Below are positions 2,188-42,303 of a stretch of 44,135 nucleotides of DNA, one piece after another (within the stretch, counting starts at the first letter, position 1; every line of letters starts with the position of its first letter). The position numbers and the translations under genes are program-made. The notes beneath the pieces are model-generated. The model did no database searches, was not told the origin of the DNA, and saw only the letters and a program-made list of their open reading frames with translations. The stretch is from a virus: the IMG/VR virus record IMGVR_UViG_3300034069_000450, positions 1 to 44,135 of that record. One strand, 5' to 3'.

Positions 2188-2198
2188 AATACTAGGCG
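2188..2198 (-). promoter_or_regulatory. CGCCTAGTATT motif copy 1 (candidate late promoter -10 region or RNA signal)
   Basis: Exact 11-mer shared with 29419-29429, 34456-34466 and 42292-42302. It lies in the terL/small-ORF gap, 51 nt before ATG 2136. Confidence 0.5.
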
Positions 2199-2201
2199 TG
2201 T

Positions 2202-2933
2202 TCAGTAGCCGGTGTTACCGTTGCGCTCGCTAGGACGCGCCTCTTCCTCGTAACGCTCGAACGGCTCGACAATGGCACAGGCCATCCCCGACATAATGAG
2301 GTAGCGCTCAGCATCCATGAGGTGATCACGCTCTTTGACGATCTTCCCTTTTTCGTCGCGTCGATACAGCCGCCGTTCGGATTTGAGATTGGTTAAGTTG
2401 GCAAACGCCTTCAACCGCGCTGATTGCAGCCGACGATAGACGGCGAAAATGCCAGCCTCGACCTCGTTGTTCGCGAACGACAGGTCTAACCCCATGGTTC
2501 GATACTCATCGATTAGCGCGCGGCCATCAAGCTGTGAGCGCCCACGCGATGCCGGATCGATAACCCCCGGTATCCACCGCCCCCGGGCGCGTAGTCCGTC
2601 CGCATGAACCTGCGGCGGGGCCTCACCGACGTAATACTCGTCGTAGAGGTATACCGTGTCGCTTTCGCGGTCCCAAGCGCCCCAGAGGGCGGCAGTGCGG
2701 TTCCAACCAACGTCGAGGGCAAATGCTCTTGGCCAGTGCCTTGGGATCGGAAAGGGCTCACAGACCCACGTATCCTCGCTCACAGGGTAAATGACGCCCG
2801 ATCCCAGCGCCGGCACACCCTTGGAGCGGGCATCGCGCTGGTGTGGAGGGATCGTCGCCAGCAGCTCAGCCTTGTCATTGTCAGACAGGTGCGGAACGTC
2901 GTCCCAATCGATCTGAATCGACCACTTGCTCAT
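2202..2933 (-). CDS. terL: Terminase large subunit, C-terminal nuclease half (separate ORF)
   Basis: WDDVPHL, RSKGVPALGSGVIYP, FALDVGWNRTAALWGAWD and DHLMDAERY are typical of the RNaseH-like nuclease domain of TerL. Its ATG overlaps the stop of the ATPase ORF (ATGA at 2933-2930). Confidence 0.88.
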   Translation of the reverse strand: MSKWSIQIDWDDVPHLSDNDKAELLATIPPHQRDARSKGVPALGSGVIYPVSEDTWVCEPFPIPRHWPRAFALDVGWNRTAALWGAWDRESDTVYLYDEYYVGEAPPQVHADGLRARGRWIPGVIDPASRGRSQLDGRALIDEYRTMGLDLSFANNEVEAGIFAVYRRLQSARLKAFANLTNLKSERRLYRRDEKGKIVKERDHLMDAERYLIMSGMACAIVEPFERYEEEARPSERNGNTGY

Positions 2934-3622
2934 GCGGCCGGTGCCAGATCGGGCAAGAACGATAGGGCTACATCGGTCAACCCAGAGAGCGGCGTGAACG
3001 TCGCGATCAGCATACCGCGCGTCGTCATCGTGCGGATTACTGCCTCGACGTAGATGTCTTGTGGGGGTTCTTCGTCAAGCCAGATACCGTCGCGCTCGGT
3101 GCCCTGCCACTTCGCACGCCCTTGGTCGTAACTGCGGAACTGACACACGCTGTTGCCGCCGCTCACGTGTCGCACCGTGCCGATGTCGATCAGACCGGGG
3201 ACGCCCGTCGCCGTAGTGGTGCCGACAATAGTCTCGCGCGGAATCATGCCCGTGCCGCGATCCTCCACCGGCCCGAAAAGCTTGCGACACGGCACATCGC
3301 GCGTTGTGGTGCTGGTATCACCGCCGCAAAGCCAGTTGGTCGGACGATCAAATCGATAGCCAGGCCACCAATCCGGATAGAGCCCGGTCAGGTGCAACGT
3401 TACCTCGTAAGCGCCGATACCCTCGCTTTTACCGACGCGGTTAGCAGCGATGGCCGCGCGCTCGCGATGTTCAAGCCCAGCCGCGAAGAATTGCAGGTGC
3501 TTGGCGTAAAGCTCGCGCCGCAACGGGCCTTCGTCGGGATAGTAGGTGTGGAGACGGCGGCCGGCTACGCGGCGCTCCTTCTCCTCAAGCAGGGCGAGTA
3601 GCTCAAGCTTATCGGCGTGCAC
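2930..3622 (-). CDS. terL: Terminase large subunit, N-terminal ATPase half (separate ORF)
   Basis: Walker A is AANRVGKS and Walker B is GIWLDEEP. GTG start overlaps the terS stop by 1 nt. Confidence 0.88.
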   Translation of the reverse strand: MHADKLELLALLEEKERRVAGRRLHTYYPDEGPLRRELYAKHLQFFAAGLEHRERAAIAANRVGKSEGIGAYEVTLHLTGLYPDWWPGYRFDRPTNWLCGGDTSTTTRDVPCRKLFGPVEDRGTGMIPRETIVGTTTATGVPGLIDIGTVRHVSGGNSVCQFRSYDQGRAKWQGTERDGIWLDEEPPQDIYVEAVIRTMTTRGMLIATFTPLSGLTDVALSFLPDLAPAA

Positions 3623-4023
3623 TAGCCTAGAGCCTTCATCTTTGCAGCGATGCGAGCATCTAGGGCGGCGTCGTCCAGACTATGCAGAGGCTGATTGCCG
3701 CTCGTTACGTCGAGCTTGTCACCATAGCGGCGCGGTGCGAGTTTGCTGAGATACCAACGCTCAGCGTCAAAGGCCAATCTCCCCTTTTGGGGATCAGCGG
3801 CAGCCTTCGCATCGTCGACAGCTCGCTCGGCGCGACGATCGAATCCCGTCTCGCGTGCGCGCGCGATAGCGGCGGCAAACTCAGGGTCTTCATTCTGCCA
3901 ACGCTCGACCGTCCGTCGATCAGGCAAGCGCTGATCTTCACAGATCGTGCGCATGCTGTCGCCATTCTCCAGCTTCTCAATGATTTCGTCGCGGACCTCG
4001 GCACCGAATCGGCTGTCCATCAC
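3622..4023 (-). CDS. terS: Terminase small subunit
   Basis: N-terminal HTH-like segment (SMRTICEDQRLPDRRTVERWQ) and the motif ERWYLSKLAPRRYGDK. It sits immediately upstream of terL. Confidence 0.8.
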   Translation of the reverse strand: MMDSRFGAEVRDEIIEKLENGDSMRTICEDQRLPDRRTVERWQNEDPEFAAAIARARETGFDRRAERAVDDAKAAADPQKGRLAFDAERWYLSKLAPRRYGDKLDVTSGNQPLHSLDDAALDARIAAKMKALG

Positions 4024-4310
4024 AAATCCCGTCCCATCTTGATCCTTGGCACCTCAATCTCGTCCGGCCTCCCCATCCTGATCCGCTGCCCACACCTGGG
4101 ACCACGACCACCGCGGTACTCGTCATTCAGGTGGATCAACCCAGCCGCCTCAGCCTGCTTGACGTACCGACGCACGGTACCGTCGTCACTGATCCGTAGC
4201 GCCTCGCGGATCATAGAATAACTAGGCGGATGCCCGGCGGTGGCGATGGTCGCGCGGCAGTAGGCGACCAGCTGGTGCATCCGTGACTGACGAGCGACCG
4301 GCGCGTTCAC
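4020..4310 (-). CDS. Winged-helix DNA-binding protein (LexA-N-terminal-like); possible late regulator
   Basis: GHPPSYSMIREALRISDDGTVRRYVKQAEAAGLI resembles the LexA wHTH. GTG 4310 was chosen because of its GTGA overlap with the upstream stop; ATG 4280 is an alternative start. Confidence 0.5.
   Translation of the reverse strand: MNAPVARQSRMHQLVAYCRATIATAGHPPSYSMIREALRISDDGTVRRYVKQAEAAGLIHLNDEYRGGRGPRCGQRIRMGRPDEIEVPRIKMGRDL
4216..4227 (-). promoter_or_regulatory. Variant of the late motif (CGCCTAGTTATT, one inserted base)
   Basis: Same orientation as the four exact copies. It lies inside the wHTH gene, ~190 nt upstream of the terS start. Confidence 0.25.
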
Positions 4311-5567: not shown

Positions 5568-5572
5568 GCCAC

Positions 5573-5876: not shown

Positions 5877-7991
5877 TCACTGTGTGACCCACTTTCCGAC
5901 GACCACAAACTCGCGCTCGTCGCGATTGCGATCGGGCTTCTTGACGACTTCCAGAGCGCCTTCAGCGATCCATCGTTCAACGATAGTTTTGATCCGGGCC
6001 TTCGCGCGTTTCACCTCATCGGTCTTCGCCGAGAGGTCGATGCGAAGGTCTAGAATGTCGACCAGTTGCTGCCCTACCCAAGCCTTTGCCTGGGAGTCGC
6101 GCCGCCAGTCACCATTCCCTAAAGAGTGCTGAAAGCGCATGAGATGCGCGGTCGTGACGCCCGAAAACGCATCCGGAGGTGTCCAGGAACAGGCGACACC
6201 GACGCTATCGCCGTTCGCCAAATCCTGATTGTTCATGCGATACCAATCGCCGCGCTCGGGCGGCGCGAGATTCGCCTTGTCGTTGTCGACGCGAAAGTAG
6301 AAGAACCGCTCATCGGCGGGCACGTTGAGCTTTGCCGCTTCTTCGTCCGTCATCCGGTTGTAGACCAGCACGGACCGAGCCTTGCCGATGAGAGCGGAGG
6401 CGCCGCGGGCGCTGTCTGCGGTGGCCTCCGCCCCGTTCTGCTTGCGGACGTGGTGGACGAGGTTGATCGCCGCGCCGGTGCGCTCAGCAATGACGTTCCA
6501 CTCGCGGGCCACTAAGTCGATCGCGTTGTTGTCGTTCTCCGATACCGCGTGCGAGCTGATGAAAGGATCGACCACCAGCACGTCGATTTTGCGCTCAATC
6601 ATCTCTTCGATGAGCGCATCCACGATGGGCCGCGCGATCATGGCGCCGTCCGGTCCTTCGGTCGCAATAATGAGGGGCTGATCGCGTCCGCTATCCACGT
6701 AAAGCCGGTCGCCAAGTTCTTTCGGGCTGATCTTGAAGCGTTGCGCCGTCGCGTGGAGGCGCCGCTCGATTTCCTCGACCGGGTCTTCTAGGTTCCACAG
6801 CCAGACGCTCAGCGCGCCTTCCGGCAGCCCTTTATCGTAGAGGTCGCGACCGGTTGCCATAGCCATCGCTTCGCCGATCTTCAGCGACGACTTGCCGACA
6901 CCGCCGGCCGCTACATCGACCGACACGAATTTGCGCAGCAGGTGCTTGCCGTAGAGCCATTGACGCTTTGGTATCGCGCTGGTCGGACGCCACGCGAAAG
7001 GAGTTGCCCGCACCAGCTTATCGACTGGCGCGGCAGGTGCGGCAAACAACGCCGCGACATCGGCCATCCCGTACTCCCTGGCCATGTCGTTGAAGTCGTC
7101 GCCGCCATCGGTCACGAGCCCGGCCATGTCCGGCATGATGACCCGCCCGCCCAGCGTGCGCGCCATCGCTTCGGCTGCTTCCTTGCCGACGTTCCGCTGC
7201 ACCTTGGGATGCGCGACGAGATGCCAGTCGTCGTCTCCCGCCACGATCATCTCGCGCCCGGCCCAACGGTGTGAGGCCCAGCGCGCGACGTGAATCATGT
7301 TGCCGGTGTTGACCGCCATCGCGACCGGGTGACCGGTGGCCTGGTGCAGCGTGGCGGCGGTGCTGTACCCTTCCGCGAAGATGACCGGAGAGGTGCCATC
7401 GTCCTGACCGACAAGGAAGTATCCGCCCTCGTGGGTGGTGCCGGGATAGAAGCGGCGCTCGCCATCCTCCCGGATCGCCTGAAGCGACATCGGCTTGTCG
7501 TTGTGATCGCTGATCGGCACGATGACGCAGGGCGCGTCGCCGAGGCCGAAGCGCTTGCCGGATCCCTGCCGCGTGCCGTGGGCCAGCACGCCCTTGCGCT
7601 GAAGGTAGGGGTGGAGCTCGGAGAGCGGCTTGCACTCGCGCCAGAATGCCAGCGCCTCGGCCGCCGCTTCTTGAAAGCCCCGCAGCCGATCAATGTCGCG
7701 CGCCTCACGGCGCCGTGCGATCTCGGCCCGGTCGATCGTCTCGCTGCTGTTCTGACCGAACCAACGGTGACGAACCTTCTCGTCCCGCCAGTCCATGACC
7801 CAGCCAACCGGACGCTCGTCCGCGTGCAGCAGGTAGCGGCCGGGCCGGCTGCCCTTGTGCCGGGTGTCCTCCATGCGGAAGCTGTGCCAGTGACCATCGG
7901 CGATGATGCTGTCGGGCGCGGACCCGCACACGCCTTTGATGAAGGCGCGGAAGTCCTCTTCGATGTCGCGGATCGGAGCGGTCGCCATCAC
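5877..7991 (-). CDS. Bifunctional DNA primase (Toprim) / RecA-type replicative helicase
   Basis: Toprim motif: VIFAEGYSTAATL...MIVAGDDDW. Walker A: DVAAGGVGKSSL. Walker B: DVLVVDPF. 704 aa. Confidence 0.8.
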   Translation of the reverse strand: MMATAPIRDIEEDFRAFIKGVCGSAPDSIIADGHWHSFRMEDTRHKGSRPGRYLLHADERPVGWVMDWRDEKVRHRWFGQNSSETIDRAEIARRREARDIDRLRGFQEAAAEALAFWRECKPLSELHPYLQRKGVLAHGTRQGSGKRFGLGDAPCVIVPISDHNDKPMSLQAIREDGERRFYPGTTHEGGYFLVGQDDGTSPVIFAEGYSTAATLHQATGHPVAMAVNTGNMIHVARWASHRWAGREMIVAGDDDWHLVAHPKVQRNVGKEAAEAMARTLGGRVIMPDMAGLVTDGGDDFNDMAREYGMADVAALFAAPAAPVDKLVRATPFAWRPTSAIPKRQWLYGKHLLRKFVSVDVAAGGVGKSSLKIGEAMAMATGRDLYDKGLPEGALSVWLWNLEDPVEEIERRLHATAQRFKISPKELGDRLYVDSGRDQPLIIATEGPDGAMIARPIVDALIEEMIERKIDVLVVDPFISSHAVSENDNNAIDLVAREWNVIAERTGAAINLVHHVRKQNGAEATADSARGASALIGKARSVLVYNRMTDEEAAKLNVPADERFFYFRVDNDKANLAPPERGDWYRMNNQDLANGDSVGVACSWTPPDAFSGVTTAHLMRFQHSLGNGDWRRDSQAKAWVGQQLVDILDLRIDLSAKTDEVKRAKARIKTIVERWIAEGALEVVKKPDRNRDEREFVVVGKWVTQ

Positions 7992-9807: not shown

Positions 9808-10031
9808 GGGTTAACTCCACGATTATGAGAATGAGTGACGCCCCGCTGCCGGTCGCTGTCCCTGCCGGGATGGTCGTGCGTCGGGGCTTGTCCGCGGTGC
9901 CAGCCGGCGTCGTCCTGCCAGCCGAGCGGGGCGAGCCAGCGCAGCAGCGGGTTGGCGAATACGACCAGCACGATGATGGCGCCGATTGCGATGATGCCGG
10001 CGTGATCGGCGATGAAGGTGAGGGCGGGCAT
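9804..10031 (-). CDS. Small membrane protein (75 aa, one N-terminal TM helix)
   Basis: Hydrophobic stretch: IIAIGAIIVLVVFANPLL. Confidence 0.5.
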   Translation of the reverse strand: MPALTFIADHAGIIAIGAIIVLVVFANPLLRWLAPLGWQDDAGWHRGQAPTHDHPGRDSDRQRGVTHSHNRGVNP

Positions 10032-10436
10032 CTAGGCGGCTCGCGAAGCTTGTTCGGTAAACTCGCGAGTGACTCGACGCGCAAGTTGAGCGATTTCTTC
10101 GGAATTGCTGCGATGCCCGGCAAGATGCCGCTTCACGCCCTTAATCAGCGCGCCTTGCGACCACCAATCAAGACTCACCTTACGCCCGCCAGTGGAGGCC
10201 GGACGGCCATCTATAGCAAGCTCAAAACCATACCATCTATTAGCGATCCACATCGAGACACCGCACCGGCGATGCGTCAGATGATAGTGGTCGGTGTCCC
10301 ATCCTTCGCCAGCATCAAGCAGGAGCAGCACCATCTCGGCTGCCGGATGCAGGCGCTTCCAGAAGCAAAGACGGCGCCAACCACGAATAAGCGAGCGCGG
10401 GTTCCGCTCACACCGCTGCCACGGATCCGCAGTCAT
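10032..10436 (-). CDS. Hypothetical early protein (134 aa)
   Basis: ORF track. Second gene of the Cro-side operon. Confidence 0.5.
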   Translation of the reverse strand: MTADPWQRCERNPRSLIRGWRRLCFWKRLHPAAEMVLLLLDAGEGWDTDHYHLTHRRCGVSMWIANRWYGFELAIDGRPASTGGRKVSLDWWSQGALIKGVKRHLAGHRSNSEEIAQLARRVTREFTEQASRAA

Positions 10437-10627
10437 GCTGCGGCCTGCGACAGCCGGGCGAGCGCGCTATTGAGCGCCACCATCGTGTTCATACGAGGCG
10501 CCATGCCGTTGCGGATGCGCTGGATTTGGGAACGGCTGATGCCGCTAGCTTCGGCAAGAGCGCCTGTCTGGACGCCAGCCTCTGACATCGCGCGCTCAAG
10601 CCAGGCGGGGTCATAGGAAGTGGGCAT
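10433..10627 (-). CDS. Cro-like HTH (XRE-type) regulator
   Basis: HTH: TGALAEASGISRSQIQRIRNG. 64 aa, first gene of the leftward arm, divergent from the repressor gene. Confidence 0.75.
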   Translation of the reverse strand: MPTSYDPAWLERAMSEAGVQTGALAEASGISRSQIQRIRNGMAPRMNTMVALNSALARLSQAAA

Positions 10628-10632
10628 GCCAT

Positions 10633-10662
10633 CTTATATGCCGCACTTATGCGGCAAAGCAA
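10633..10662 (-). promoter_or_regulatory. Candidate early-left promoter (TTGCTT-N18-TATAAG); possibly produces a leaderless cro mRNA
   Basis: On the minus strand the -35 is 10662-10657 and the -10 is 10638-10633. The 18-nt spacer is exactly operator O1. Only 5 nt separate the -10 from ATG 10627. Confidence 0.5.
10639..10656. promoter_or_regulatory. Operator O1: perfect palindrome TGCCGCA-CTTA-TGCGGCA
   Basis: 7-bp perfect inverted arms read directly. It lies in the cro/repressor intergenic region. Confidence 0.75.
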
Positions 10663-10679
10663 GCCCCATTCATGAGGCG

Positions 10680-10697
10680 CGACGCAATTATGCGGCC
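10680..10697. promoter_or_regulatory. Operator O2: CGACGCA-ATTA-TGCGGCC (imperfect)
   Basis: Same 7-4-7 geometry, about 41 bp from O1. Confidence 0.5.
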
Positions 10698-10715
10698 GGG
10701 TCTATTCGTCCGGGC

Positions 10716-11162
10716 ATGCAGGATAGACAGCGCCCGATCGCCGAATGGATGCGTGAAGTCATGCAACGCAGGGGTATTGCGGCCCGCGCTTGGGCTGAAA
10801 AAGCGCAGCTAGGAAAGGATACGGTATCGCGTGCGATCCGCGATGGATATGAGCACGTGACCAGTACGACCACGATCGCCAAGCTGGCGGATGCGTTGGG
10901 CGAGCGGCCTTACGGCGCTGCTGCCGGCGTTCCTAGTGTCGCGTCCCTCGAATCGATTCTAGCGGTGTTGCATCAAACCGTTTTGGGTGAAGCGCCGATG
11001 GAACGTGAGCTGACCCGCATTCTTGCTTCAAGTTTGAGAGACACCCTTCTACACCTCGCAGACGAACCTGAAGCGCTTGACGATCCTCGCCTTTCACAGA
11101 CGCTAGCTCGCGTCGCAGTTCGTCCGCATACGCAGTCATCCGCTCGACCGCGAAAATCCTGA
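10716..11162 (+). CDS. CI-like HTH repressor without a recognisable S24 autocleavage domain
   Basis: XRE-type HTH: ARAWAEKAQLGKDTVSRAIRDG...TTIAKLADALG. No Ser/Lys peptidase motifs are visible in the C-terminal half. ATG 10716 was chosen; the track start 10620 would overlap cro and O1. Confidence 0.65.
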   Translation: MQDRQRPIAEWMREVMQRRGIAARAWAEKAQLGKDTVSRAIRDGYEHVTSTTTIAKLADALGERPYGAAAGVPSVASLESILAVLHQTVLGEAPMERELTRILASSLRDTLLHLADEPEALDDPRLSQTLARVAVRPHTQSSARPRKS

Positions 11163-11252
11163 ACGTCTCACCTGCCGGCATCTCTCTCTCCCGTTCCCCC
11201 TATGTACGACTGATCTGCGTTGTAGGGAACGTGCGAAAAGAATTATCGTGGT

Positions 11253-11270
11253 TGCCGCATTAATGCGCTT
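11253..11270. promoter_or_regulatory. Operator-like site O3: TGCCGCA-TTAA-TGCGCTT (one good half-site)
   Basis: Left arm is exact; right arm matches 4 of 7 positions. Confidence 0.35.
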
Positions 11271-11297
11271 GACGATGCCGCATTAGCGCGGCATATA
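11269..11297 (+). promoter_or_regulatory. Candidate rightward promoter TTGACG-N17-CATATA
   Basis: -35 at 11269-11274 and -10 at 11292-11297. The spacer is occupied by operator O4. SD GAGGAGG and ATG 11340 lie downstream. Confidence 0.55.
11276..11293. promoter_or_regulatory. Operator O4: TGCCGCA-TTAG-CGCGGCA
   Basis: 7-4-7 palindrome with one mismatch, between the -35 and -10 of the rightward promoter. Confidence 0.65.
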
Positions 11298-11339
11298 CCT
11301 CCTCACACCCCGAGCCCCGGCTCGAATGAGGAGGCAAGC

Positions 11340-11591
11340 ATGGTCACCGCCAAGAAGCACGGCCGCAATGGCACCCGCTACAGCAACGGCCGCGATAGCG
11401 TAGTCATCTACCCGTTCCGCTCTGGCTATGCCTCGCGCGTCAGCCGCAGCGATGGCCGCATTTTCCGCGCTTTCCACCCGGATCGCGCCGATGCAGCGTA
11501 TCTCGCTGGCGAGTGGATGGACCCGGAGCAGAACGGGCGCTTTATCCTCGACAACGACATGGCTCGTCTGCGTCAGCAGGTGGCGGCATGA
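11340..11591 (+). CDS. Hypothetical protein (83 aa)
   Basis: ORF track. SD GAGGAGG lies 6 nt upstream. First gene of the rightward operon. Confidence 0.55.
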   Translation: MVTAKKHGRNGTRYSNGRDSVVIYPFRSGYASRVSRSDGRIFRAFHPDRADAAYLAGEWMDPEQNGRFILDNDMARLRQQVAA

Positions 11592-11782
11592 GCGGCGATC
11601 TCATACCTGTGCCGCGCGACTTGCTCGCTGCTGCCTGCTTCTGCGCTCGTAAACACGCACCGGACAGCAGCACCTATCAGCAGCTGAGCGCGTTGGCTCT
11701 GTCGCCGGCTGAAAAAACCTTCGCCGGCATGCCGATCAGCCAAGTCGCGCTCGGCACCTACCATCCGGGGGACGACGCATGA
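11588..11782 (+). CDS. Hypothetical protein (64 aa)
   Basis: ATGA overlap with the previous stop. Confidence 0.45.
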   Translation: MSGDLIPVPRDLLAAACFCARKHAPDSSTYQQLSALALSPAEKTFAGMPISQVALGTYHPGDDA

Positions 11783-12135
11783 CCCCCGCCAATACCCCCG
11801 CGGGTTGGACGGGTGGGGCGTCCGTCGCCGACGTTCTGGAGCGTGCGGCTGATCTGATCGAGCCGGAAGGTTGTTGGACGCAGGGAGCCGACGCCCGTAA
11901 CGCAGCGGGATGGAAAACGACCGGCCACGATGACGCGGCGGTTTGTTTTTGCGCGGAAGGCGCGATCATCCATGCTGCTGGTAAGCGCCCGAAGCACGAT
12001 GCCTTCCAAGCGGTACGTCGAGCGATTGGTGCGCCGTGGATCCATGAATGGAACGACGCCCCCGAGCGCACCCAGCCTGAGGTAGTCGCCAAGCTCCGCG
12101 AAGCCGCTTCCATCGCACGGGAGCGGGGCCTGTGA
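11779..12135 (+). CDS. Hypothetical protein (118 aa, CWTQG...CFCAEGA motif)
   Basis: ORF track. ATGA overlap with the previous gene. Confidence 0.55.
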   Translation: MTPANTPAGWTGGASVADVLERAADLIEPEGCWTQGADARNAAGWKTTGHDDAAVCFCAEGAIIHAAGKRPKHDAFQAVRRAIGAPWIHEWNDAPERTQPEVVAKLREAASIARERGL

Positions 12136-12350
12136 ACGCCCCCTTCTTCCCGCCCGCCGACGTGACGGCGATCGAGCGCACCTACGAGCTGATCGATAAC
12201 AGTCGCTTCGACTGGCACCTGCGCACGCGTCAGGGTCTGCCGTTCGAACTGCGGTTCTGCGCCGAGGGTCAGCCGACGCATTTCTACGCCACCCGCGATG
12301 CCGCGCTCGCCGTTGCGTATCGCTGGGTCGAAACGGGGAAGGCGTCATGA
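12132..12350 (+). CDS. Hypothetical protein (72 aa)
   Basis: ORF track. Its start overlaps the previous stop. Confidence 0.5.
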   Translation: MNAPFFPPADVTAIERTYELIDNSRFDWHLRTRQGLPFELRFCAEGQPTHFYATRDAALAVAYRWVETGKAS

Positions 12351-14403: not shown

Positions 14404-14404
14404 T

Positions 14405-15731: not shown

Positions 15732-15734
15732 TGG

Positions 15735-16481
15735 ATGGACCGCTTCTTCGTCGGGGTCCATCAGCCGTGCGACGCGCACCGGGTGGAAGCCGCCTTCATA
15801 TCGATCCATCGCATTGCGAACCGGCGCAGTCCGTTCGCGGTCGGCGCGTGGATCATGGACAGCGGGGCCTTTCGGACGATCGAGCTGCACGCCGGCTATC
15901 CAGAGCCGCCCGAGGTCTACGCGGCTCAGATCAAGCGGTGGTCGACCAATGGCAATCTGTTGGCAGCGGTAAGCCAGGACTACATGTGCGAGCCGTTCAT
16001 GCTGGCGATCACTGGCTTAACGATCGCGGATCACCAGCGGCTGACGATCGAGCGCTACGACGCGCTGATGGCTTGCGACCTGGGTGGCGTCTACCTGATG
16101 CCGGTCCTGCAAGGCTACTCGCCAGCAGACTACGTGCGACATCTGGAGATGTACGGCGACCGGCTGGCGCATGGCGCGTGGGTCGGTGTTGGCAGTGTTT
16201 GCAAGCGCAACGGCGACCCCGCGGCGATCGAGGAGGTCCTCCTCGCGATCAAGCGCGTGCGGCCCGACCTTCGGCTTCACGGCTTCGGCATCAAGACGAC
16301 CGCCCTGCGCAGTGCGCTCGTCCGCGCGCTGCTGTGGACCGCCGACAGCATGGCGTGGAGCTTCGCAGCTCGGAAAGCCGGCAGGAACGGCAATTCAATC
16401 GAGGAGGCGCTGATGTTCGCCGACCGGATCAACAGCATGGAAATACCGGACACGCTGCTGTCGCTGATGGTGGCCGCATGA
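15735..16481 (+). CDS. dpdA: DpdA-like DNA transglycosylase (TGT superfamily, 7-deazaguanine insertion into DNA)
   Basis: N-terminal FFVGVHQP, a TGT-type catalytic motif WIMDSGAFRT, and C-terminal LHGFGIK. No tRNA-TGT zinc motif is seen. It is adjacent to the QueD-like gene. Confidence 0.6.
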   Translation: MDRFFVGVHQPCDAHRVEAAFISIHRIANRRSPFAVGAWIMDSGAFRTIELHAGYPEPPEVYAAQIKRWSTNGNLLAAVSQDYMCEPFMLAITGLTIADHQRLTIERYDALMACDLGGVYLMPVLQGYSPADYVRHLEMYGDRLAHGAWVGVGSVCKRNGDPAAIEEVLLAIKRVRPDLRLHGFGIKTTALRSALVRALLWTADSMAWSFAARKAGRNGNSIEEALMFADRINSMEIPDTLLSLMVAA

Positions 16482-16520
16482 CCGGTTTTCCCGCCCGCGC
16501 CCGCACCCAGGAGACCACCG

Positions 16521-16832: not shown

Positions 16833-17361
16833 GGTGGCGGCCAAGATGAAGCCGCAATACCCCGATTATCTGGACGATCCGGACGGCCTAGACCGCTTCC
16901 GCCAATCTGTGCGGGTCAACAGCGGTCATGACATGGCGTTGGTCAACTACAACTCCCTCGGACGTTTGATCGACACGATTGACCGGCTCACCCGCCAGCA
17001 AGCCGAAGCCCGCGCCACGTCGGGGGCGGGGGACAGAGAACGCCTCACTGACAAGGTGCGCGATCTTATCGCCGAAATGCAGATGGGTGATGCATCTGAA
17101 TACGAGACGACGGACGTGATCGTCGCCCTTCTCTCCGCCTCCCCCACCGAAGTGCCAGGATTGGAAGGGGTGGGGTCAGTGACGATCAGCCGGGAGCGAT
17201 ACGATCGTCTGCGCTTTGCGGCGGGAGAGATCAATGCCGATCCCGGTCTAGCAGCGGTCGCCGGTGAAAGCCGTTCTGCACTCATGACCGCGATGGCAAC
17301 GGAGCGTCGAGCGTTCGCCGCACCCACCCGCCTCGCGCTCAATGAGCAGGGGGAAGGGTGA
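16822..17361 (+). CDS. Hypothetical protein (179 aa)
   Basis: Starts at ATG 16822 (MSSEVAAKMK), the same first four codons as the gene at 16521. Confidence 0.5.
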   Translation: MSSEVAAKMKPQYPDYLDDPDGLDRFRQSVRVNSGHDMALVNYNSLGRLIDTIDRLTRQQAEARATSGAGDRERLTDKVRDLIAEMQMGDASEYETTDVIVALLSASPTEVPGLEGVGSVTISRERYDRLRFAAGEINADPGLAAVAGESRSALMTAMATERRAFAAPTRLALNEQGEG

Positions 17362-18176
17362 TGGCGTATGCTGATCGCCTCGCCCGCCGAGACCAGCGCG
17401 TTTCGCAGAGGACTCGCGTTCTGGCTTGGGTCGATGGTGTCAATAGCGCCGTCATGACCAAGCTGGCGCTTGATGAGGACTCCGACGTTATCCCGGTTCA
17501 CTGTGACCTAGGCGATAGCGTACACGAGGACAGTCACCGGTTCATCAACGATCTAGAGATATGGTACGGCAAGCCGATCATCCGCATCCGCAGCGAAGAA
17601 TACGCGACAATCGATGAGGTGTTCGAGAAGCGTCGTTATCTGTCTGGTATGAACGGAGCGCCATGCACGGGCGCCATGAAGATAGTGCCTCGCATGAACT
17701 TTCAATTGCCAAGCGATACTCACCTGTGGGGATATGCCGCCGATAAGCTAGACGCCAAGCGCTTTACTCGGATGCAGGCCGACTACCCGTTACTGCTCCA
17801 GCGCGCGCCGTTGGTCGAACTCGGCATGACCAAGCGCGACACGCATGCTTACCTCGCGGACCATGGCATCCGCCGGCCTCATGTCTACGATGTCGGCATG
17901 CCAAACGGCAACTGCATTGGCTGCGTCAAGTCGTCCAGCCCGAACTACTGGGCTCTAATCAGGCAAGAGTTTCCCAAAGTATTTGAGCGCCGCAATGCGC
18001 AAGCGCGTAGATTTGGTGCGCGCCTCGTCATCGTTGGTCGCGAGAAGGGCGAGGACGGCAAGGTCCGCAACATCCGCGCTTTTCCAGACGAAATACCGGC
18101 TGATCAATCAACCATCGTTCGCGGTGCCGACTTTGGTGGTTGTGGCTTCCATTGTCCCACGGAGCAATCCTTATGA
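17358..18176 (+). CDS. PAPS-reductase/PP-loop superfamily protein with degenerate P-loop
   Basis: Family-like layout: WVDGVNSAV where SGGxDS is expected, then NCIGC and a C-terminal GGCGFHC (compare the ECGLH-type motif). Confidence 0.5.
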   Translation: MMAYADRLARRDQRVSQRTRVLAWVDGVNSAVMTKLALDEDSDVIPVHCDLGDSVHEDSHRFINDLEIWYGKPIIRIRSEEYATIDEVFEKRRYLSGMNGAPCTGAMKIVPRMNFQLPSDTHLWGYAADKLDAKRFTRMQADYPLLLQRAPLVELGMTKRDTHAYLADHGIRRPHVYDVGMPNGNCIGCVKSSSPNYWALIRQEFPKVFERRNAQARRFGARLVIVGREKGEDGKVRNIRAFPDEIPADQSTIVRGADFGGCGFHCPTEQSL

Positions 18177-26352: not shown

Positions 26353-26354
26353 GG

Positions 26355-27103: not shown

Positions 27104-27106
27104 TGA

Positions 27107-29340: not shown

Positions 29341-29400
29341 CGGGCGCTTCCGGATATGAGCGGGAAGGGCACCATCCGGGCCGATTGCGAGTGGGTATGC

Positions 29401-29450
29401 CGCGTGGGGGCGGGGTGGAATACTAGGCGTTGCGTGGGGGCAGGGGGTGG
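29401..29450. repeat. G-rich direct repeats GCGTGGGGGC(G/A)GGGGTGG flanking motif copy 2
   Basis: 29402-29418 and 29432-29450 read directly, in the divergent gap between the tail-fibre gene and the moron. Confidence 0.6.
29419..29429 (-). promoter_or_regulatory. CGCCTAGTATT motif copy 2
   Basis: Exact 11-mer, 78 nt upstream of tail-fibre ATG 29340. Confidence 0.5.
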
Positions 29451-29480
29451 GTTAGCCTGCGCCAAAAGCGAGGGTTGATA

Positions 29481-29882
29481 ATGCGCTACGGCTTTGCTGG
29501 CGTTCTCCTATTAGCCGCTACGGGTAGTGCGGTCGGACAAACTACAACTTGCACAAATTGGTACAACACGACGACCTGCAATACACCGCCGCAAGCTCCT
29601 GGCGTGAACTGGGGCATCCTTCAGTCTCAACCTCAGCAATCTGTGATGGGCGCCTACCAGCAGGGTCGCGCCATTGCTCAGGAGCGCGCCAACCAGCAAG
29701 CGGCGATGGCGCAACAGCAAGCCAACGACATTGAGGCGCAGCGGCAAGGCGACCGCAATCAACGCGTGGGATCGCTAGTTGCGGCCGGACGATGCCAAGA
29801 CGCACTAACGACCGCTTTGAACGAGGGTGACTTTTCCTTGGCCGGTCAAGTCAAGAATGTTTGCGCCGAAGGGCGGAAGTAG
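29481..29882 (+). CDS. Secreted (signal-peptide) Cys-containing protein; opposite-strand moron with ejection-protein N-terminal mimicry
   Basis: Signal peptide MRYGFAGVLLLAATGSAVG/Q and 4 Cys. NWGILQ and AYQQGR are identical to the N-terminus of the 429-aa ejection protein. SD GCGAGGG lies upstream. Confidence 0.65.
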   Translation: MRYGFAGVLLLAATGSAVGQTTTCTNWYNTTTCNTPPQAPGVNWGILQSQPQQSVMGAYQQGRAIAQERANQQAAMAQQQANDIEAQRQGDRNQRVGSLVAAGRCQDALTTALNEGDFSLAGQVKNVCAEGRK

Positions 29883-29885
29883 ATC

Positions 29886-30017
29886 ATGACCCCAAGCATG
29901 TATACCCTGCCGTTCGCGACCGCGATATATTGGGCTGTCAAAGAGGCGTGGGGCTTGTACAAGGCGCGCTCAGCGTCCGTAGCTGAGAGCCAATCCGGAG
30001 CCGATGAGACCTCCTAG
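29886..30017 (+). CDS. Possible small ORF (43 aa) following the moron
   Basis: ATG lies 4 nt after the moron stop. It overlaps the 3' end of the convergent gene, which weakens the call. Confidence 0.2.
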   Translation: MTPSMYTLPFATAIYWAVKEAWGLYKARSASVAESQSGADETS

Positions 30018-33920: not shown

Positions 33921-34348
33921 GCGGCCCTCCACTCGAAATGCTCGACGGCGCCGAAATGCTCGGATTGCGCCACGCCGCGGGACAGCATGCCGATCTGCCG
34001 GTTGAACCAACGTGCCCGCACGTTGACCACCGGCGTCTGCGACCAGATGACAGCTCCTAATTCGGCCGCTGCCCATGCGAACATGGCGCGCCCCATCTCG
34101 ATTGCGGCACGTCCGCGGCAACCGAGGCGGAACATCGTGTGCTTTTCCCAGATGCCCAGAAACGCGGGTCCGGTGTGCTGGAACAGCATCATCGCGTCGC
34201 CGTCGTGGACAATGCGCACATCACCGCGCGCAACGATCGCCGATAGGTCTACCTCCCCCTCCTCGACCGGGGCACCGATGTGGGGCCGAATGGCCGGATC
34301 GTTGGCGAATGCGTTGACCAGATTGGCGTCGTGCGTCAGTCGCAGCAT
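33911..34348 (-). CDS. Acetyltransferase-fold-like small protein, paralog B
   Basis: About 35-40% identical by eye to 34336..34770 (LVN..AN.PA, HTMF, CRGR.A.E.G.A, W.QTP, RWFN..IG). Confidence 0.4.
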   Translation of the reverse strand: MLRLTHDANLVNAFANDPAIRPHIGAPVEEGEVDLSAIVARGDVRIVHDGDAMMLFQHTGPAFLGIWEKHTMFRLGCRGRAAIEMGRAMFAWAAAELGAVIWSQTPVVNVRARWFNRQIGMLSRGVAQSEHFGAVEHFEWRAACL

Positions 34349-34770
34349 CCGGGCTTCCTCATGACAAAGCGCTCGACTTCGCCGTGTACGGGGTGGAGGC
34401 CGATCCCGGCGGGCTCAAATCCGATGCGGTGGTTAAACCAGCGGACGTGGCGGAGAATACTAGGCGTCTGTCCCCAGAGCATGGTGGCGCCGTGGTCGAA
34501 CATCCATCCGCACAGGGCCTTGCCAGCCTCTACAGCCGACCGGCCACGACATGTGGGCAGGAACATCGTGTGGCCTTCCCAAACACCAGGCGCGCTCCAT
34601 TCGAAAATCGCTACGGCATCACCGCCATTAGAGAGAATGCGGTACTCGTCGGACTCTATACAGGGCGTGAAGTCGAGTGCGTCCCGTTTCCCTAGATCGA
34701 AGTACGGCAGCACGGCCGGGTGATTGGCGATGCGATTGACCAGCGTCGCCCCAGTCTCGCGCCGGATCAT
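34336..34770 (-). CDS. Acetyltransferase-fold-like small protein, paralog A
   Basis: Tandem paralog of the gene above. From memory it resembles podovirus proteins annotated 'internal virion protein A'. Confidence 0.4.
   Translation of the reverse strand: MIRRETGATLVNRIANHPAVLPYFDLGKRDALDFTPCIESDEYRILSNGGDAVAIFEWSAPGVWEGHTMFLPTCRGRSAVEAGKALCGWMFDHGATMLWGQTPSILRHVRWFNHRIGFEPAGIGLHPVHGEVERFVMRKPGCCD
34456..34466 (-). promoter_or_regulatory. CGCCTAGTATT motif copy 3 (inside paralog A, 107 nt upstream of the paralog B ATG)
   Basis: Exact 11-mer. Confidence 0.4.
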
Positions 34771-36763: not shown

Positions 36764-37431
36764 CGGTAGTCATCCTGACCGAACATGAAATACGCGTCAG
36801 GGCGATCCCAATCGAGCATATCTCGTTCCATTTCGGCTGCGCGCTGCGCTACCACCTGAACCGTCGCTGCGTCCGTACGCGCTTTGCCGAACATGGGTGC
36901 AAGGCGGACCGCCAGCATGGTCCACACAGCCTCCTGGAACATCTGCGGCACGTCGACGGGATCGGACGGCTGCATCACGGCGTCCGTAATACGACCGTAG
37001 CTGTAGCGAATCGTCGTCGCTTCGTCCGGCACCGGATAGAGTTGCATCGACAGTCCGCCCGTCGCGGTCAAGATGGCATAGGCAACCGGCACACCACGCG
37101 TAGTCACATTCGGCAACGCCACCATGTCATCACGGGACCAGAGCGCCAAAAGGCGTTCATCCCCGCCGGTCAACATTACCTTGGCCGTGCCGACACTGAT
37201 CGCACCCGGAAGCGGCATGACCGACACTCCCGGCGCAAAATCCACGGCGCCATCCGTGTCGCGCCACAGATTCAATCCCTTGGCCGCGTACGCCTTCAGC
37301 ATGGAGTTGAGGCGAAGGATGCCGTCTGTCAGCTCTTCGCTGGTCGGGTTCTCGCCAGACGCCAGCACCCCGATCTCGCGCACGGCTTGGGTGACCATAT
37401 CGCGGGCGGTCATGGAGAAGGTGGTAGTCAC
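36760..37431 (-). CDS. Head-tail adaptor / tail tubular protein A-like (223 aa)
   Basis: N-terminus MVTQAVREIGVLASGENPTSEELTDGILRLNSMLKAYAAKGLNLW is typical of podovirus adaptor proteins (from memory). Confidence 0.4.
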   Translation of the reverse strand: MTTTFSMTARDMVTQAVREIGVLASGENPTSEELTDGILRLNSMLKAYAAKGLNLWRDTDGAVDFAPGVSVMPLPGAISVGTAKVMLTGGDERLLALWSRDDMVALPNVTTRGVPVAYAILTATGGLSMQLYPVPDEATTIRYSYGRITDAVMQPSDPVDVPQMFQEAVWTMLAVRLAPMFGKARTDAATVQVVAQRAAEMERDMLDWDRPDAYFMFGQDDYR

Positions 37432-39116
37432 AATAGCCTCTCAATGGTAAGATGAGCGCCGGCCATTAAAACAATGCCATCATTGCCCATGCTAATAAAG
37501 ATTTCGCCATCAAAACCTGGTGCTTCTATATCAAGCACGAAGCTTCGGACGGTTCCTTCTGGCTGATTTGGCATGAAAATACCTGGGTTGCCGAAGTAAC
37601 CGTTTATCTGCGTTGTCCAAATATCGTCACCCGTCTCATAGGTCAGCAGGCCACTGGTTGTTTCCTTGTTAAATACACCGATACCCATACTAATACTACC
37701 ATCGCCAACAGCGCGCTTGAACTTACCGGCCAAACGAATACGATAGCGCGTCGAACCCACGGCCGACCCTGGAAAGCCTGCGACAAAGCGCAACTGCGGC
37801 TGAGGCGTGCCCTGGCCGATAATGCCATCCCCCCCACGTGGCACGTCTTGCGCATAAACATACGATAGCGTCTGGCCAATGCTAGGAGCATAAATCTTGT
37901 TTGGACTGACGTAGCGCGTTGAAGGTGAGATATAGCTGTTAGCTCCGCCGCCGACATAAATTGAGCCTGTCGAAGTCGTGATACTTCCGCCATACACAGA
38001 AAGCGGGGCAGCATTGTTATTGTAAACGAAGCCGGTTGTCCCAGCAGGCGCGTTGACAGTTACGTCGAGATTTCGGGTCAGCAGCATTGTACCGGTGCCC
38101 TGCACAAAAACCTCCTGCGAGGTTGTACTGAGTTTTCCGCCAATCCACTCCAACTGCCCTTGCTCAAGGTTGCACGCTAGCCCAGGCGCGACAAGCGCGC
38201 AGTTAAACATCGTGATCTTGCCGACCGATGCGCTCGCGTTGATCTTACTAACCTGAATGGCGTTGACGGCGGTCGTGCAGACTGAACGGCAATTCTCAAA
38301 ACGAATGTCGTCAACAAATCCCGCGTCGCCGGACCCGCTATCCGCCACGACAAGAAAGGGAGTGCCCTTGCCGACGTGATCACCGTTGCGGAATGTGATC
38401 CGCTTCGACCCGAACAACGTGTGCCAGACGCCTTCAAAGCCGAGTGGGTTGTCGCCGTCGCCGTCACGCGCGTACGTGTTCTCAAATAAGATGTCGTAAG
38501 CGGCCGTCGTTTCGAAATGCACGTTTGCGTTGAAGGATTGAATGTCTCGGAAGGCGCAGAACTGCGAGAATTCCTGCGCAAAGAACGCATAGCCCATGTT
38601 CACGGCTTTAATGCGCTCGGCAAGGCAGTGCTTGTTCGTGAACATCCAGACGCACTGGACCTTGTGCGACGTCTTCGGGGCAATGCCCGTATAGTCTGCC
38701 GCGTAACAGCCGGCAGCGCCGGTGGCGAACCGAACGATAGCTTTGTCGCTGAACTCAGCCGCGTCGAGATTGTTCGTGCGGATTAGCCGAGTTACGTCGA
38801 TGCCCGCACCCCGGACAAATTTACCAGAAGGTACAACAATCGCATGGTCAAGCCGGATGTCACCAGCGGGGAGAATGACGCCGGCCACGCCAGTCGTGTT
38901 GAGAATGGCGTTAATGCCAGCTGCGTTGTCACCGCTAACGGGAATGTAGGGAACGCCCACCCCATTGACGGTCGATGTGCCTGGCTGGCCTGGAGGTCCG
39001 GGGATTCCCGGCTTGCCTTCCGGACCCGGAACAGCCCGCTCCTCAATCAAGGCCAGCGCATCCGCCGTAAACCGCTTGAACGCCGTCGCCTCCGAAAGCG
39101 GCCGAACATCAACCAT
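37428..39116 (-). CDS. Tailspike with collagen-like G-X-Y tract and beta-helix body (562 aa)
   Basis: GPEGKPGIPGPPGQPG, then repeats typical of pectate-lyase-like spikes. ATG 39116 is preceded by GGAGAGTGAGA. Confidence 0.65.
   Translation of the reverse strand: MVDVRPLSEATAFKRFTADALALIEERAVPGPEGKPGIPGPPGQPGTSTVNGVGVPYIPVSGDNAAGINAILNTTGVAGVILPAGDIRLDHAIVVPSGKFVRGAGIDVTRLIRTNNLDAAEFSDKAIVRFATGAAGCYAADYTGIAPKTSHKVQCVWMFTNKHCLAERIKAVNMGYAFFAQEFSQFCAFRDIQSFNANVHFETTAAYDILFENTYARDGDGDNPLGFEGVWHTLFGSKRITFRNGDHVGKGTPFLVVADSGSGDAGFVDDIRFENCRSVCTTAVNAIQVSKINASASVGKITMFNCALVAPGLACNLEQGQLEWIGGKLSTTSQEVFVQGTGTMLLTRNLDVTVNAPAGTTGFVYNNNAAPLSVYGGSITTSTGSIYVGGGANSYISPSTRYVSPNKIYAPSIGQTLSYVYAQDVPRGGDGIIGQGTPQPQLRFVAGFPGSAVGSTRYRIRLAGKFKRAVGDGSISMGIGVFNKETTSGLLTYETGDDIWTTQINGYFGNPGIFMPNQPEGTVRSFVLDIEAPGFDGEIFISMGNDGIVLMAGAHLTIERLL
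38979..39026 (-). repeat. Collagen-like G-X-Y x5 tract
   Basis: GPE GKP GIP GPP GQP G in the translation. Confidence 0.7.
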
Positions 39117-39423
39117 TCTCACTCTCCACAAGAAAGCTTTCGGCAAGCTCGATCACGTACGAGCCATCATCATCGATCAGCAGAACCGCGTCATCCGGCA
39201 CGAATGGCAGTGACAATCCCCAATCGGGCACAACGACGAAGTTGGGAGCGGGCTCAGGCCGCGCGTTTCGCAACGGCAAGCCTTCAGGGTAGAGGCGGGG
39301 AGGACGTAGCGTCGCGGGCTTAGCATCCCAATCGGCCGCGCAGACCATTAACCCGGTCCACTCTTTACGCAGGTCGTGGAGGTCGTATTCGAAGCCGCAG
39401 CGATCACATATTCCGCGCGCCAT
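39109..39423 (-). CDS. Zinc-ribbon-like protein (104 aa)
   Basis: MARGICDRCGFEYDLHDLRKEWTGLMVCAADWD. AGGAGG lies 5 nt upstream of ATG 39423. Confidence 0.5.
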   Translation of the reverse strand: MARGICDRCGFEYDLHDLRKEWTGLMVCAADWDAKPATLRPPRLYPEGLPLRNARPEPAPNFVVVPDWGLSLPFVPDDAVLLIDDDGSYVIELAESFLVESENG

Positions 39424-39483
39424 ACGATCCTCCTGAAACTCGGTGCCCCGCCTTTTCATGGGCGCGGGGCCTTCCCCCGGGCG

Positions 39484-40383: not shown

Positions 40384-40397
40384 TGGTCAGCCCTCCC

Positions 40398-40973
40398 TTA
40401 AAGGCCAGTGGAGCCGGCAGCCGGCGTCTCGGTGGTCTGGTTGATGCGGACGAGAACGACGGCGTACTGGCCGAAGTCGTTATCCGGGCGGCGTGCCAGG
40501 CCCATGATGCGGACCTGAAGGGTGGCAGTCGTGGTCATCGACGCCGTGTCGAGCATCCATCCCGACATGCCGTAAGCGTTGCCTGCGGTGCCTGCGATCA
40601 GGTTAGCGTTGGCGCCGATGTCGCCGACCGCAACGACGCCGTTTGCCTGCACTTCGTAGAGCAGATCTGGATCGTGCTCGACAAAAGCATGCACGGCGTT
40701 GCCCGCAGCGCGAAAACCGGCCGCGACGATCGCAGGGTTGGGAGTAAAGCCGACGACGGCACCGGTGATGCGATTGCCGGCGCCCGCCGTGGCCAGCGTG
40801 GCGGACGGAGTACCGTCAGTGTCAGCGCTGCCGGAAAGAACCACGGGATCACCGCGATAGACGACGGAAGTATCGGCGGCGAGAAGCGCGAACGGGTCAG
40901 CCCCGTCATTGAAAGGCGCGCTCGACGCCGACCGAACGGGCTTCAGCCCGAAGGGTGCGTTTGCGTTAGGCAT
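40398..40973 (-). CDS. Capsid-associated (decoration-like) protein (191 aa)
   Basis: Immediately upstream of the MCP gene, with a Gly/Ala/Thr-rich beta-type sequence. The call is based on position. Confidence 0.3.
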   Translation of the reverse strand: MPNANAPFGLKPVRSASSAPFNDGADPFALLAADTSVVYRGDPVVLSGSADTDGTPSATLATAGAGNRITGAVVGFTPNPAIVAAGFRAAGNAVHAFVEHDPDLLYEVQANGVVAVGDIGANANLIAGTAGNAYGMSGWMLDTASMTTTATLQVRIMGLARRPDNDFGQYAVVLVRINQTTETPAAGSTGL

Positions 40974-40985
40974 GGTGCCTGTACC

Positions 40986-41447
40986 TCATGGAGAGAAAGT
41001 GGCGGAACCGATCCTGTTACCCGAGACGGCGAAGCGCATGTCTGCGCCCGCAACGTCGCGGCCCTCGGGATCGACGGGAGCGCCTTGCAGCGCCTGAGAC
41101 TCCACCTCGCGTCGCCGCACATCCTTGCGAGCCTGATCGTCCGCGTCGTATTCGCGGGGCTTCATGAGGAGGTGCGCCATGATCGGCTTACCGTGTTCAT
41201 CGGTGCCGACAGGTCGCGGTTCGATACCAGGCACCTTGTCCCAGTCGTCGCGTTCGGTGGCGTTGTAGATGCGAGGACCAACGTCATTGAACCAGCGCAG
41301 ACGATGCGATTGACCGTATTCCGCCTCGATCGTCGGCGGCACGGCAAGCTTCATGTCCATCGACTGGTCGAGCGTGCCGTCCATCCGACGACGACGCTGA
41401 GTCGTTTCCTCACCCGCGCGATCCCGCGCCTGCGTTCCCTGCGCCAT
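40986..41447 (-). CDS. Hypothetical head-module protein (153 aa)
   Basis: ORF track. TGATG junction with the scaffold gene. Confidence 0.45.
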   Translation of the reverse strand: MAQGTQARDRAGEETTQRRRRMDGTLDQSMDMKLAVPPTIEAEYGQSHRLRWFNDVGPRIYNATERDDWDKVPGIEPRPVGTDEHGKPIMAHLLMKPREYDADDQARKDVRRREVESQALQGAPVDPEGRDVAGADMRFAVSGNRIGSATFSP

Positions 41448-42241
41448 CAGGCTGTCTGCTCCTCGTAATAGACCTTGGCGTAATCCTCCAAAGTCTTGAC
41501 CATGCCGCGCTTAAGGAAATCGCTGCCGGCCCGCTGCGCTTCGGCAGGGAGGGTGGCGAATGTTTTGGCAGCGGGACGGGTTTGCGCGGCGCGAGTCTCC
41601 GGGGCGCTCACGGCCGGGGCCGGCTTTGCGGGCTGACGTTGGCCATGGAATAGCTGTGGAAAGTCGGATCGCACGGCATCTTCGGCCATGCGGAGCTGCT
41701 CGTCAGGGGTGATGCCCCGCGCAGCCGCTTCGGCGGTGATGCTCTGAGCCAGCGCAGTGGCGGCGCGGTTCTGACCGTACCAGCCACCGTTGCGCTGCAT
41801 GAAATCGTTGATGGCCGGGGCGGGGGCGTTGGCCTCCGAAGGCTGATCCAGCCGCGCCAATTCCTCGCGCGCTGCACGGGCGCCCTCATGGTCCTTGGCC
41901 TCAACCGCGCCGGCGAACCGCTCTTCGGCCTCGCGCCGCGCATTCTCGATCTCGCGGCGCATGACGGTCTCGGATACGCGGCCGATGCGATCGACCGTCG
42001 ACTTGAGTTCGCGCACCTCACGAGTGGCGTCCCGACCGCGCTCCATGCCGTAGGCGATGAAGTCCTTGGGCTCGCGCCAATCCTCGGGCTTGCCGCGCCA
42101 TTCTTCCTTAGGGGACCAGCCGCGTTCACGGGCGAAGTCCTCGAAAGGGTCAGGTGCGCGCTGCTCAACCTGCTGCTCAAGCGCTTCGGCTTGCTCGACA
42201 GCACCCTGTTCCTGTTCGACGTTTTCTACCAGTTCGGTCAT
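41447..42241 (-). CDS. Scaffolding protein
   Basis: 264 aa, highly charged and helical (EQEQGAVEQAEALEQQVEQ...). It lies between the portal region and the MCP. Confidence 0.5.
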   Translation of the reverse strand: MTELVENVEQEQGAVEQAEALEQQVEQRAPDPFEDFARERGWSPKEEWRGKPEDWREPKDFIAYGMERGRDATREVRELKSTVDRIGRVSETVMRREIENARREAEERFAGAVEAKDHEGARAAREELARLDQPSEANAPAPAINDFMQRNGGWYGQNRAATALAQSITAEAAARGITPDEQLRMAEDAVRSDFPQLFHGQRQPAKPAPAVSAPETRAAQTRPAAKTFATLPAEAQRAGSDFLKRGMVKTLEDYAKVYYEEQTA

Positions 42242-42284
42242 CGGACCCCTCGCATGATCGTGGCGAGGTATGACCTGTCCGGTC

Positions 42285-42303
42285 GCGCCTAAATACTAGG
42301 CGC
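42285..42303 (-). promoter_or_regulatory. CGCCTAGTATT motif copy 4 (42292-42302) embedded in the hairpin GCGCCTA-GTATT-TAGGCGC
   Basis: Exact 11-mer. Here it forms a 7-bp stem with a 5-nt loop, directly after stop 42304-42306 and 50 nt before scaffold ATG 42241. Confidence 0.5.

Follow-up and report, generated by a model that had tools for sequence, protein, structure and literature searches.

We analysed a stretch of 44,135 nucleotides (nt) from the IMG/VR virus record IMGVR_UViG_3300034069_000450, the whole of which we call the window, and an 11-base box, CGCCTAGTATT, that recurs among its late genes. Positions 1-141 of the window are identical to 43995-44135, and this 141-nt terminal overlap points to a circularly assembled genome with a unique length of 43,994 bp, in which the portal gene spans the circular junction. 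Its G+C content is 63% and, judged by its sequence, it is a temperate Sphingomonas podophage. No close relative was found among GenBank phages, including by a near-identity search with 25 kb of the window. Prophage relatives are present in Sphingomonas melonis and S. folli, and one member of the group resides in the sequenced isolate genome Sphingomonas melonis AS2.3. We propose that the box may be the activator site of a set of late promoters, read by a small LexA-like winged-helix protein encoded next to the terminase genes.

On the plus strand, AATACTAGGCG occurs exactly at 2188-2198, 29419-29429, 34456-34466 and 42292-42302, so that the late-gene strand carries four exact copies of CGCCTAGTATT, all in late-gene orientation. 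Box 1 (2188..2198, minus strand) lies 3 nt past the terL stop, upstream of a 40-residue open reading frame (ORF) and the portal gene, and 51 nt from the downstream ATG. Box A (42292..42302, minus strand) follows a cargo ORF, 1 nt past its stop, and precedes the scaffold ATG by 50 nt, and box B (29419..29429, minus strand) precedes the tailspike ATG by 78 nt. The remaining copy, box C (34456..34466, minus strand), falls within the ORF at 34336-34770, 107 nt before the next ATG, and is spelled there by the rare codons CCT AGT ATT (expected frequency of the codon triple, 0.0026). Between the upstream structural gene and box B, positions 29430-29969 form a gap of ~540 nt without a confident gene; in the relative L001 the gap measures ~130 nt.

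An earlier reading of the window from its letters alone, hereafter the original prediction, had reported the four copies, their common orientation and their distances to the downstream start codons. Our search reproduced all of these. Dinucleotide shuffles gave 0.26 expected matches at up to one mismatch and none of 100 shuffles reached four, while the window holds no extra copy at one mismatch. The box has the joint top count among all 11-mers of the window, tied with three GC-rich words, and is alone among the four in having every copy in one orientation. Three copies extend to the 13-mer ACGCCTAGTATTC. When a position matrix was built from relatives only, with the window excluded, it selected exactly the four window sites, which score 21.6-36.4 bits, whereas nothing else exceeds 7.1 bits. 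We conclude that the repeated box is real and functional, and it very probably serves as a late transcription signal at the level of DNA.

Relatives were collected by three routes, through the capsid protein, terL and the winged-helix protein. At least 13 related phages and prophages carry the box at the same four places: site 1 after terL and before the small ORF and portal (occupied in 13 relatives), site A before the scaffold gene, site C inside the gene preceding the ejection proteins and site B before the tailspike. The expectation that the motif would recur in equivalent gaps of related phages was thus borne out, and it does so with a twist. Four versions of the box exist, and every site of one genome carries the same version. 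Class I, (C/T)GCCTAGTATT, is found in the window (as CGCCTAGTATT) and eight other genomes; class II, CGCCTACTATT, occupies 4/4 sites of a Sphingomonas melonis prophage; classes III and IV read CTCCTACTATT and CGCCCACTATT. At site C, which is coding, the class II version comes at the price of a Ser-to-Thr substitution. When unlinked sites change in concert in this way, a reader that acts in trans and co-evolves with them is implied. None of 51 loci related through the primase only contains the box, even at 80% primary identity, which indicates that the box travels with the late module and not with the replication module.

The same comparisons reveal where these genomes are mosaic. Junctions coincide with the upstream edges of boxes (window positions 2199, 42303 and 29430, seen against L142, L001 and L002). 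L142 resembles the window from box 1 onward and has another terminase upstream of it; box A is where a variable cargo stretch of 1.2-6.8 kb comes to an end; and conservation of the tailspike after box B is limited to its first 13-15%.

The winged-helix gene (4020-4310, minus strand) encodes the LexA-like protein of 96 residues that we propose as the box-binding late activator, and it lies immediately upstream of terS (3622-4023, minus strand). It is the sole non-structural gene, and the sole DNA-binding gene, common to all box-bearing genomes. This co-occurrence holds in L142, with its different terminase, and in several genomes with unrelated replication modules. The genome MW202785, with a capsid 52% identical and the same gene order, has neither the winged-helix gene nor the box and carries an RfaH-like gene instead. 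The original prediction had singled out this gene as a candidate, a choice strengthened by the finding that gene and box are present together and absent together.

Sequence and structure comparisons place the protein near the DNA-binding domain of LexA. Its match to the Pfam family LexA_DNA_bind (PF01726) is weak, at 17.1 bits against a cut-off of 23.7; its homologue P0016 has a precomputed PF01726 match, and its profile finds the DNA-binding domain of LexA chains in the PDB at E = 0.003. An AlphaFold2 model, made with database homologues of the protein, shows a three-helix winged-helix fold, and LexA accounts for each of its 11 best PDB matches (TM ~0.6). We found no S24 peptidase or dimerisation domain in the 96-residue protein, and nothing follows the wing. 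Pfam and PHROGs returned no match of the protein to the Mor/C, Ogr/Delta or RinA/ArpU families, and, in ~60 ORFs that did not include all small ORFs, no sigma factor or known late regulator.

The predicted recognition helix varies with box class. It reads VRRYV(K/R)QAE in class I, where nine phages share it unchanged despite an overall identity of only 60-77%, IRRAVRAAE in class II, VRQHVVEAE in class III and VRQILKRAE in class IV. For L165, a class IV box was predicted from the helix and then found.

A near-box, CGCCTAGTTATT, equivalent to the box with one inserted T, lies inside the winged-helix ORF itself (4217..4228, minus strand); the original prediction had noticed this variant but placed it one position off, at 4216-4227. 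Its spelling, CG CCT AGT TAT TC (peptide PSYS), is kept in 9/9 class I genomes with variable synonymous positions around it, and is absent in 9/9 other genomes, which encode the same peptide with ordinary codons (expected frequency of the codon triple, 0.004). Both class IV genomes have a one-mismatch near-box elsewhere in this ORF. We surmise that the near-box is either a weak terS/terL promoter or an autoregulatory site, and that the winged-helix protein probably reads the box. A side observation concerns L147 (Sphingomonas folli, NZ_JAHXZL010000013), where positions 9900-12300 contain a truncated winged-helix gene with boxes on both sides; a box-B-type leader and small genes come directly after it, and no terminase is present there. 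This locus may be a prophage remnant or a different element using the same switch.

A protein of this kind could also work in the opposite sense. The box would then be an operator and the LexA-like protein a late repressor, or else a host factor would read the box and the winged-helix protein would serve elsewhere, for example in packaging. LexA DNA-binding domains are classically repressors, the box would overlap the -35 region of the promoters described below, palindromic versions occur at box A and near the winged-helix gene in L147 and L154, and in some genomes the winged-helix gene itself lies behind a box. However, without any -35 match the promoters should be weak unaided, and there is no obvious logic in the last early gene silencing the genes just after it. 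The genome-specific box classes, in turn, argue against a conserved host factor. We therefore regard both versions of this alternative as unlikely.

The sequences downstream of the box suggest how an activator might use it. We weighted 37 distinct sites into 22 clusters of dissimilar flanks and obtained a bipartite profile. AA at -13/-12 relative to the last box base is followed by the 11-mer, a C-rich spacer and, exactly 20 nt downstream of the box, a second conserved element, cATaaC, with A21 in 20.5/22, T22 in 19/22 and C25 in 20/22 weighted clusters. A pyrimidine at +32 and a purine at +33 after the box come next, with a ribosome-binding site near +42 to +46. The RpoD -10 consensus of Caulobacter is GCtANAWC, and cATaaC agrees with it at A-11, A-9 and C-7 (PMC13004042, PMC8144410). 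With cATaaC as the -10, the box falls at roughly -42 to -32 and TATTcc occupies the -35 position. A consensus scan of the late arm found 0 sigma-70-consensus promoters against 4.0 expected, and a scan for intrinsic terminators upstream of the boxes found nothing beyond chance.

In the window, the weighted profile predicts a -10 on the minus strand at each promoter: AATGAC for promoter 1 (2163..2168, +20 to +25 after the box; predicted start near 2156), CATACC for promoter A (42267..42272; predicted start near 42260), CATACC for promoter B (29394..29399; predicted start near 29387) and TTTAACC for promoter C (34431..34437), the last using a rare TTT codon in 6/6 genomes examined. In three distant relatives, L147, L154 and L152, the winged-helix gene directly follows a box, and its ATG comes 32, 32 and 31 nt after the box, respectively, with no ribosome-binding site before it. 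Such ATGs would be expected of leaderless mRNA from the predicted start, and we take them as the best available evidence for this geometry and against the TAGTAT within the box as a -10. The separate -10-like element, the +32/+33 signature and the leaderless ATGs point to the box as an activator site in the -35 region, and a position at -42 to -32 is likely.

The original prediction had imagined late promoters that lack a -35 and need a phage factor, with TAGTAT as their -10. Our comparative evidence supports its first half; the second is probably wrong. It would make the box the -10 of a T4-late-like promoter, used by host polymerase with a phage sigma or modifier and starting 6-8 nt after the box. 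Consistent with this, A6 and T10, which would become A-11 and T-7, are invariant in all four classes, no -35 is present and the leader hairpins described below would fall within the transcript. Yet this leaves unexplained both the rigidly spaced A21-T22-C25 of the separate -10-like element and the ATGs at +31/+32 without ribosome-binding sites, and the pyrimidine-purine start signature, present at +32/+33, is missing at +6 to +8. The box also differs from the T4-type late -10, TATAAATA; no sigma-like protein, gp55-like or otherwise, was found among the ORFs scanned, which did not include all small ORFs; and concerted changes at -12 and -10 are not expected for recognition by sigma region 2. 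A start this close to the box thus seems improbable.

A hairpin overlaps one of the boxes. The palindrome GCGCCTA-GTATT-TAGGCGC (42285..42303, minus strand) spans box A with a 7-bp stem, just as the original prediction had described for its fourth copy. In the form (C/T)GCCTA-GTATT-TAGGC(G/A) it is found in 8/9 class I genomes, including one compensatory change (TGCCTA..TAGGCA). Half of the box recurs in other palindromes, since its 5' half is also part of GCCTA-GTTTG-TAGGC, ~116 nt upstream of the winged-helix gene in L147, and GCCTAC-N9-GTAGGC, ~77 nt upstream of that gene in L154. Such palindromes might provide a dimer with its second half-site or, alternatively, form a hairpin in RNA.

It has been suggested from the outset that the box might act in RNA, as a processing site or as a nut/boxB-like antitermination signal. 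The stem of 6-7 bp with a 5-nt loop at copy A, its compensatory change across class I genomes and the presence of every copy on the transcribed strand would fit. The hairpin has, however, no counterpart at sites 1, B and C and is absent at site A in classes II-IV and L159, and this limitation to one site and one box class makes the proposal weak. The window has no Rfam family match at the gathering threshold, the box pair is inverted in L152, and the leaderless ATGs at +32 speak, like the fixed spacing to the -10-like element, for initiation at the DNA level. We see only a slim chance that the box works through RNA. Slimmer still is the prospect that the boxes are short junctions for module exchange between mosaic phages and not expression signals, for although L142 homology starts at box 1, variable cargo ends at box A and a variable tailspike follows box B, homologous recombination needs more than 11 bases, promoters form natural boundaries for insertions in any case, and a box C within a conserved gene, the downstream element and the concerted class changes would all go unexplained. 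DpdA-directed modification, Chi-like sites and iterons were also considered and dropped, as the box follows the late module and stays at a fixed distance from genes.

Two further hairpins lie in the leaders of promoters 1 and A. At site 1, CCCGTC / GA(A)CGGG (2138..2158, minus strand) encloses the ribosome-binding site of the 40-residue ORF, the predicted start falls inside its 5' arm, and RNAalifold finds three pairs with compensatory changes across 11 genomes. At site A, CCTCGC / GCGAGG (42248..42268, minus strand) sequesters the scaffold ribosome-binding site, with the predicted start in the loop. Single-sequence folds of the orthologous scaffold leaders place the ribosome-binding site in the 3' arm in 10/10 cases, despite differing arm sequences. 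The 5' arm of both leader hairpins ends at +29 to +35, so that a start at +32/+33 would remove or truncate it.

We put a probability of roughly 50% on the model as a whole, in which the winged-helix protein activates box-dependent late promoters together with the host RpoD polymerase. The protein would be made at the end of the early leftward operon, as its last gene before terS, and would bind the box, where it would recruit or stabilise host RNA polymerase; we infer activation rather than repression. Each late promoter would have its box at roughly -42 to -32 and an RpoD-type -10 (cATaaC) but no -35, and transcription would start ~32 nt after the box. There are most likely four, possibly five, late promoters of this predicted set. 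The four would divide the late arm into portal, chaperonin and cargo; scaffold, capsid and connector; ejection proteins; and tailspike through lysis. At promoters 1 and A, transcription would begin within the 5' arm of the leader hairpin or immediately beyond it; as this hairpin hides the ribosome-binding site, read-through transcripts would be poorly translated and transcripts from the late promoter well translated.

Several points weigh against this model. LexA-type domains are usually repressors, and the structure model of the winged-helix protein is of only moderate confidence, with a predicted local distance difference test (pLDDT) score of 67. The correlation between helix and box amounts to about four independent lineages and is confounded, because late-module genes all share the phylogeny of the box classes. 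In L147, L154 and L164, a helix of the class I type goes with C7 boxes; these genomes rule out a one-residue recognition code pairing Tyr with G7, and the mismatch means that no simple recognition code applies. The -10-like element is missing the usual T at -12. Finally, the compensatory leader hairpins would not form in transcripts starting at +32, which means either that they act on other transcripts or that the start lies further upstream; a start further upstream would place the hairpins in late transcripts too.

The remaining genes follow a compact layout. On the minus strand, the primase-helicase (5877-7991) is followed by unknown ORFs and, beyond the winged-helix gene and terS, by a split terL, in which the ORFs for the ATPase (2930-3622) and the nuclease (2202-2933) share an ATGA overlap. 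This two-ORF split is also seen in L157, L161, L162, L165 and MW202785, and L155 and L163 have one ORF of 464-494 residues; the split could reflect a genuinely two-piece terminase or a programmed frameshift. The 40-residue ORF and then the portal, across the origin, come next on this strand, with a GroES/Cpn10-like co-chaperonin (43440-43784, minus strand) after the portal and ahead of the cargo ORFs. This co-chaperonin gene is kept in all relatives, MW202785 included. Scaffold, capsid, P22/SU10-type adaptor and closure proteins follow the cargo ORFs in this order on the minus strand, and after them, again on the minus strand, ejection proteins, a beta-helix tailspike and an endolysin. An ORF of 572 residues (37428-39146, minus strand) with a lower local GC (57%) separates the capsid gene from the adaptor gene. 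It has no counterpart in relatives and no Pfam or PHROG match, and is for these reasons probably acquired cargo within the structural operon. Recombination genes, DpdA and an integrase occupy the plus strand. The DpdA homologue (E = 5e-42) lies near a PAPS-reductase-like gene (15735-16481 and 17358-18176, plus strand), a pairing which suggests that the phage DNA carries 7-deazaguanine modifications.

How phages of Alphaproteobacteria control their late genes has been little charted, and our survey provides a concrete, testable regulon comprising a 14-bp site, AAnCGCCTAGTATT, with fixed spacing to an RpoD-type -10, predicted starts and a candidate activator of 96 residues. The box enables automatic annotation of late promoters in this prophage group. 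Its four natural specificity variants could yield a code of protein-DNA recognition or be put to use as orthogonal switches in Sphingomonas. We found nothing relevant in the literature on the box word or on Sphingomonas late promoters, and neither the box with its four specificity classes nor the protein family appears to have been described. More tentatively, these phages may reveal a family of LexA-domain-only late activators of ~95 residues in Sphingomonas podophages, with at least four protein/box specificity pairs that would be naturally orthogonal switches and with late transcripts that would begin inside the hairpins hiding ribosome-binding sites, tying promoter choice to translation of portal and scaffold, although we consider this full picture doubtful.

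The proposed arrangement resembles several known systems in part. In phage Mu, C activates the four late promoters, which have a -10 and lack a -35, and Mor activates the middle promoter. The likeness extends to the number of late promoters, the -10 without a -35 and the small phage helix-turn-helix activator over the -35 region, whereas Mu C and Mor belong to another family, bind a dyad-symmetric site as dimers and work in enterobacterial hosts. P2 Ogr, P4 Delta and 186 B likewise serve several late promoters through one shared upstream element and one small phage protein. They differ from the candidate system in being zinc-finger proteins that use the site TGT-N12-ACA, centred near -55. In T4 middle promoters (MotA box plus sigma-70 -10), as proposed here, a phage box replaces the -35 and the host -10 is retained. 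The MotA box, however, is centred at -30 and requires the co-factor AsiA, and we saw no MotA/AsiA-type genes in the window. The predicted late start inside a hairpin that hides the ribosome-binding site recalls T4 gene e (lysozyme), where promoter choice leaves read-through transcripts translationally silent and late transcripts active; the T4 promoters and proteins are unrelated to those of the window.

The best fold and profile match of the 96-residue protein is the LexA N-terminal DNA-binding domain, but the phage protein is without LexA's S24 peptidase/dimerisation domain, and the box is unrelated to SOS boxes and mostly non-palindromic. The position of the winged-helix gene next to terS matches that of RinA, LtrC and ArpU of Gram-positive phages, regulators encoded directly upstream of terS that control packaging and morphogenesis genes; these have no sequence relation to it and act at one promoter upstream of terS (PMC3152322), in contrast to the four dispersed promoters and the near-box inside the regulator gene predicted here. 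Caulobacter DriD promoters are likewise alphaproteobacterial and have an activator site at a fixed distance from an RpoD -10, with no -35 needed; DriD differs from the phage protein in being a host protein with a WYL domain and a response to single-stranded DNA (PMC13004042). The activator-dependent late promoter, as exemplified by Mu C, P2 Ogr, RinA and MotA, is a classical mechanism, and by analogy with these systems the Sphingomonas box and its candidate reader would be a new instance of it, not a new principle.

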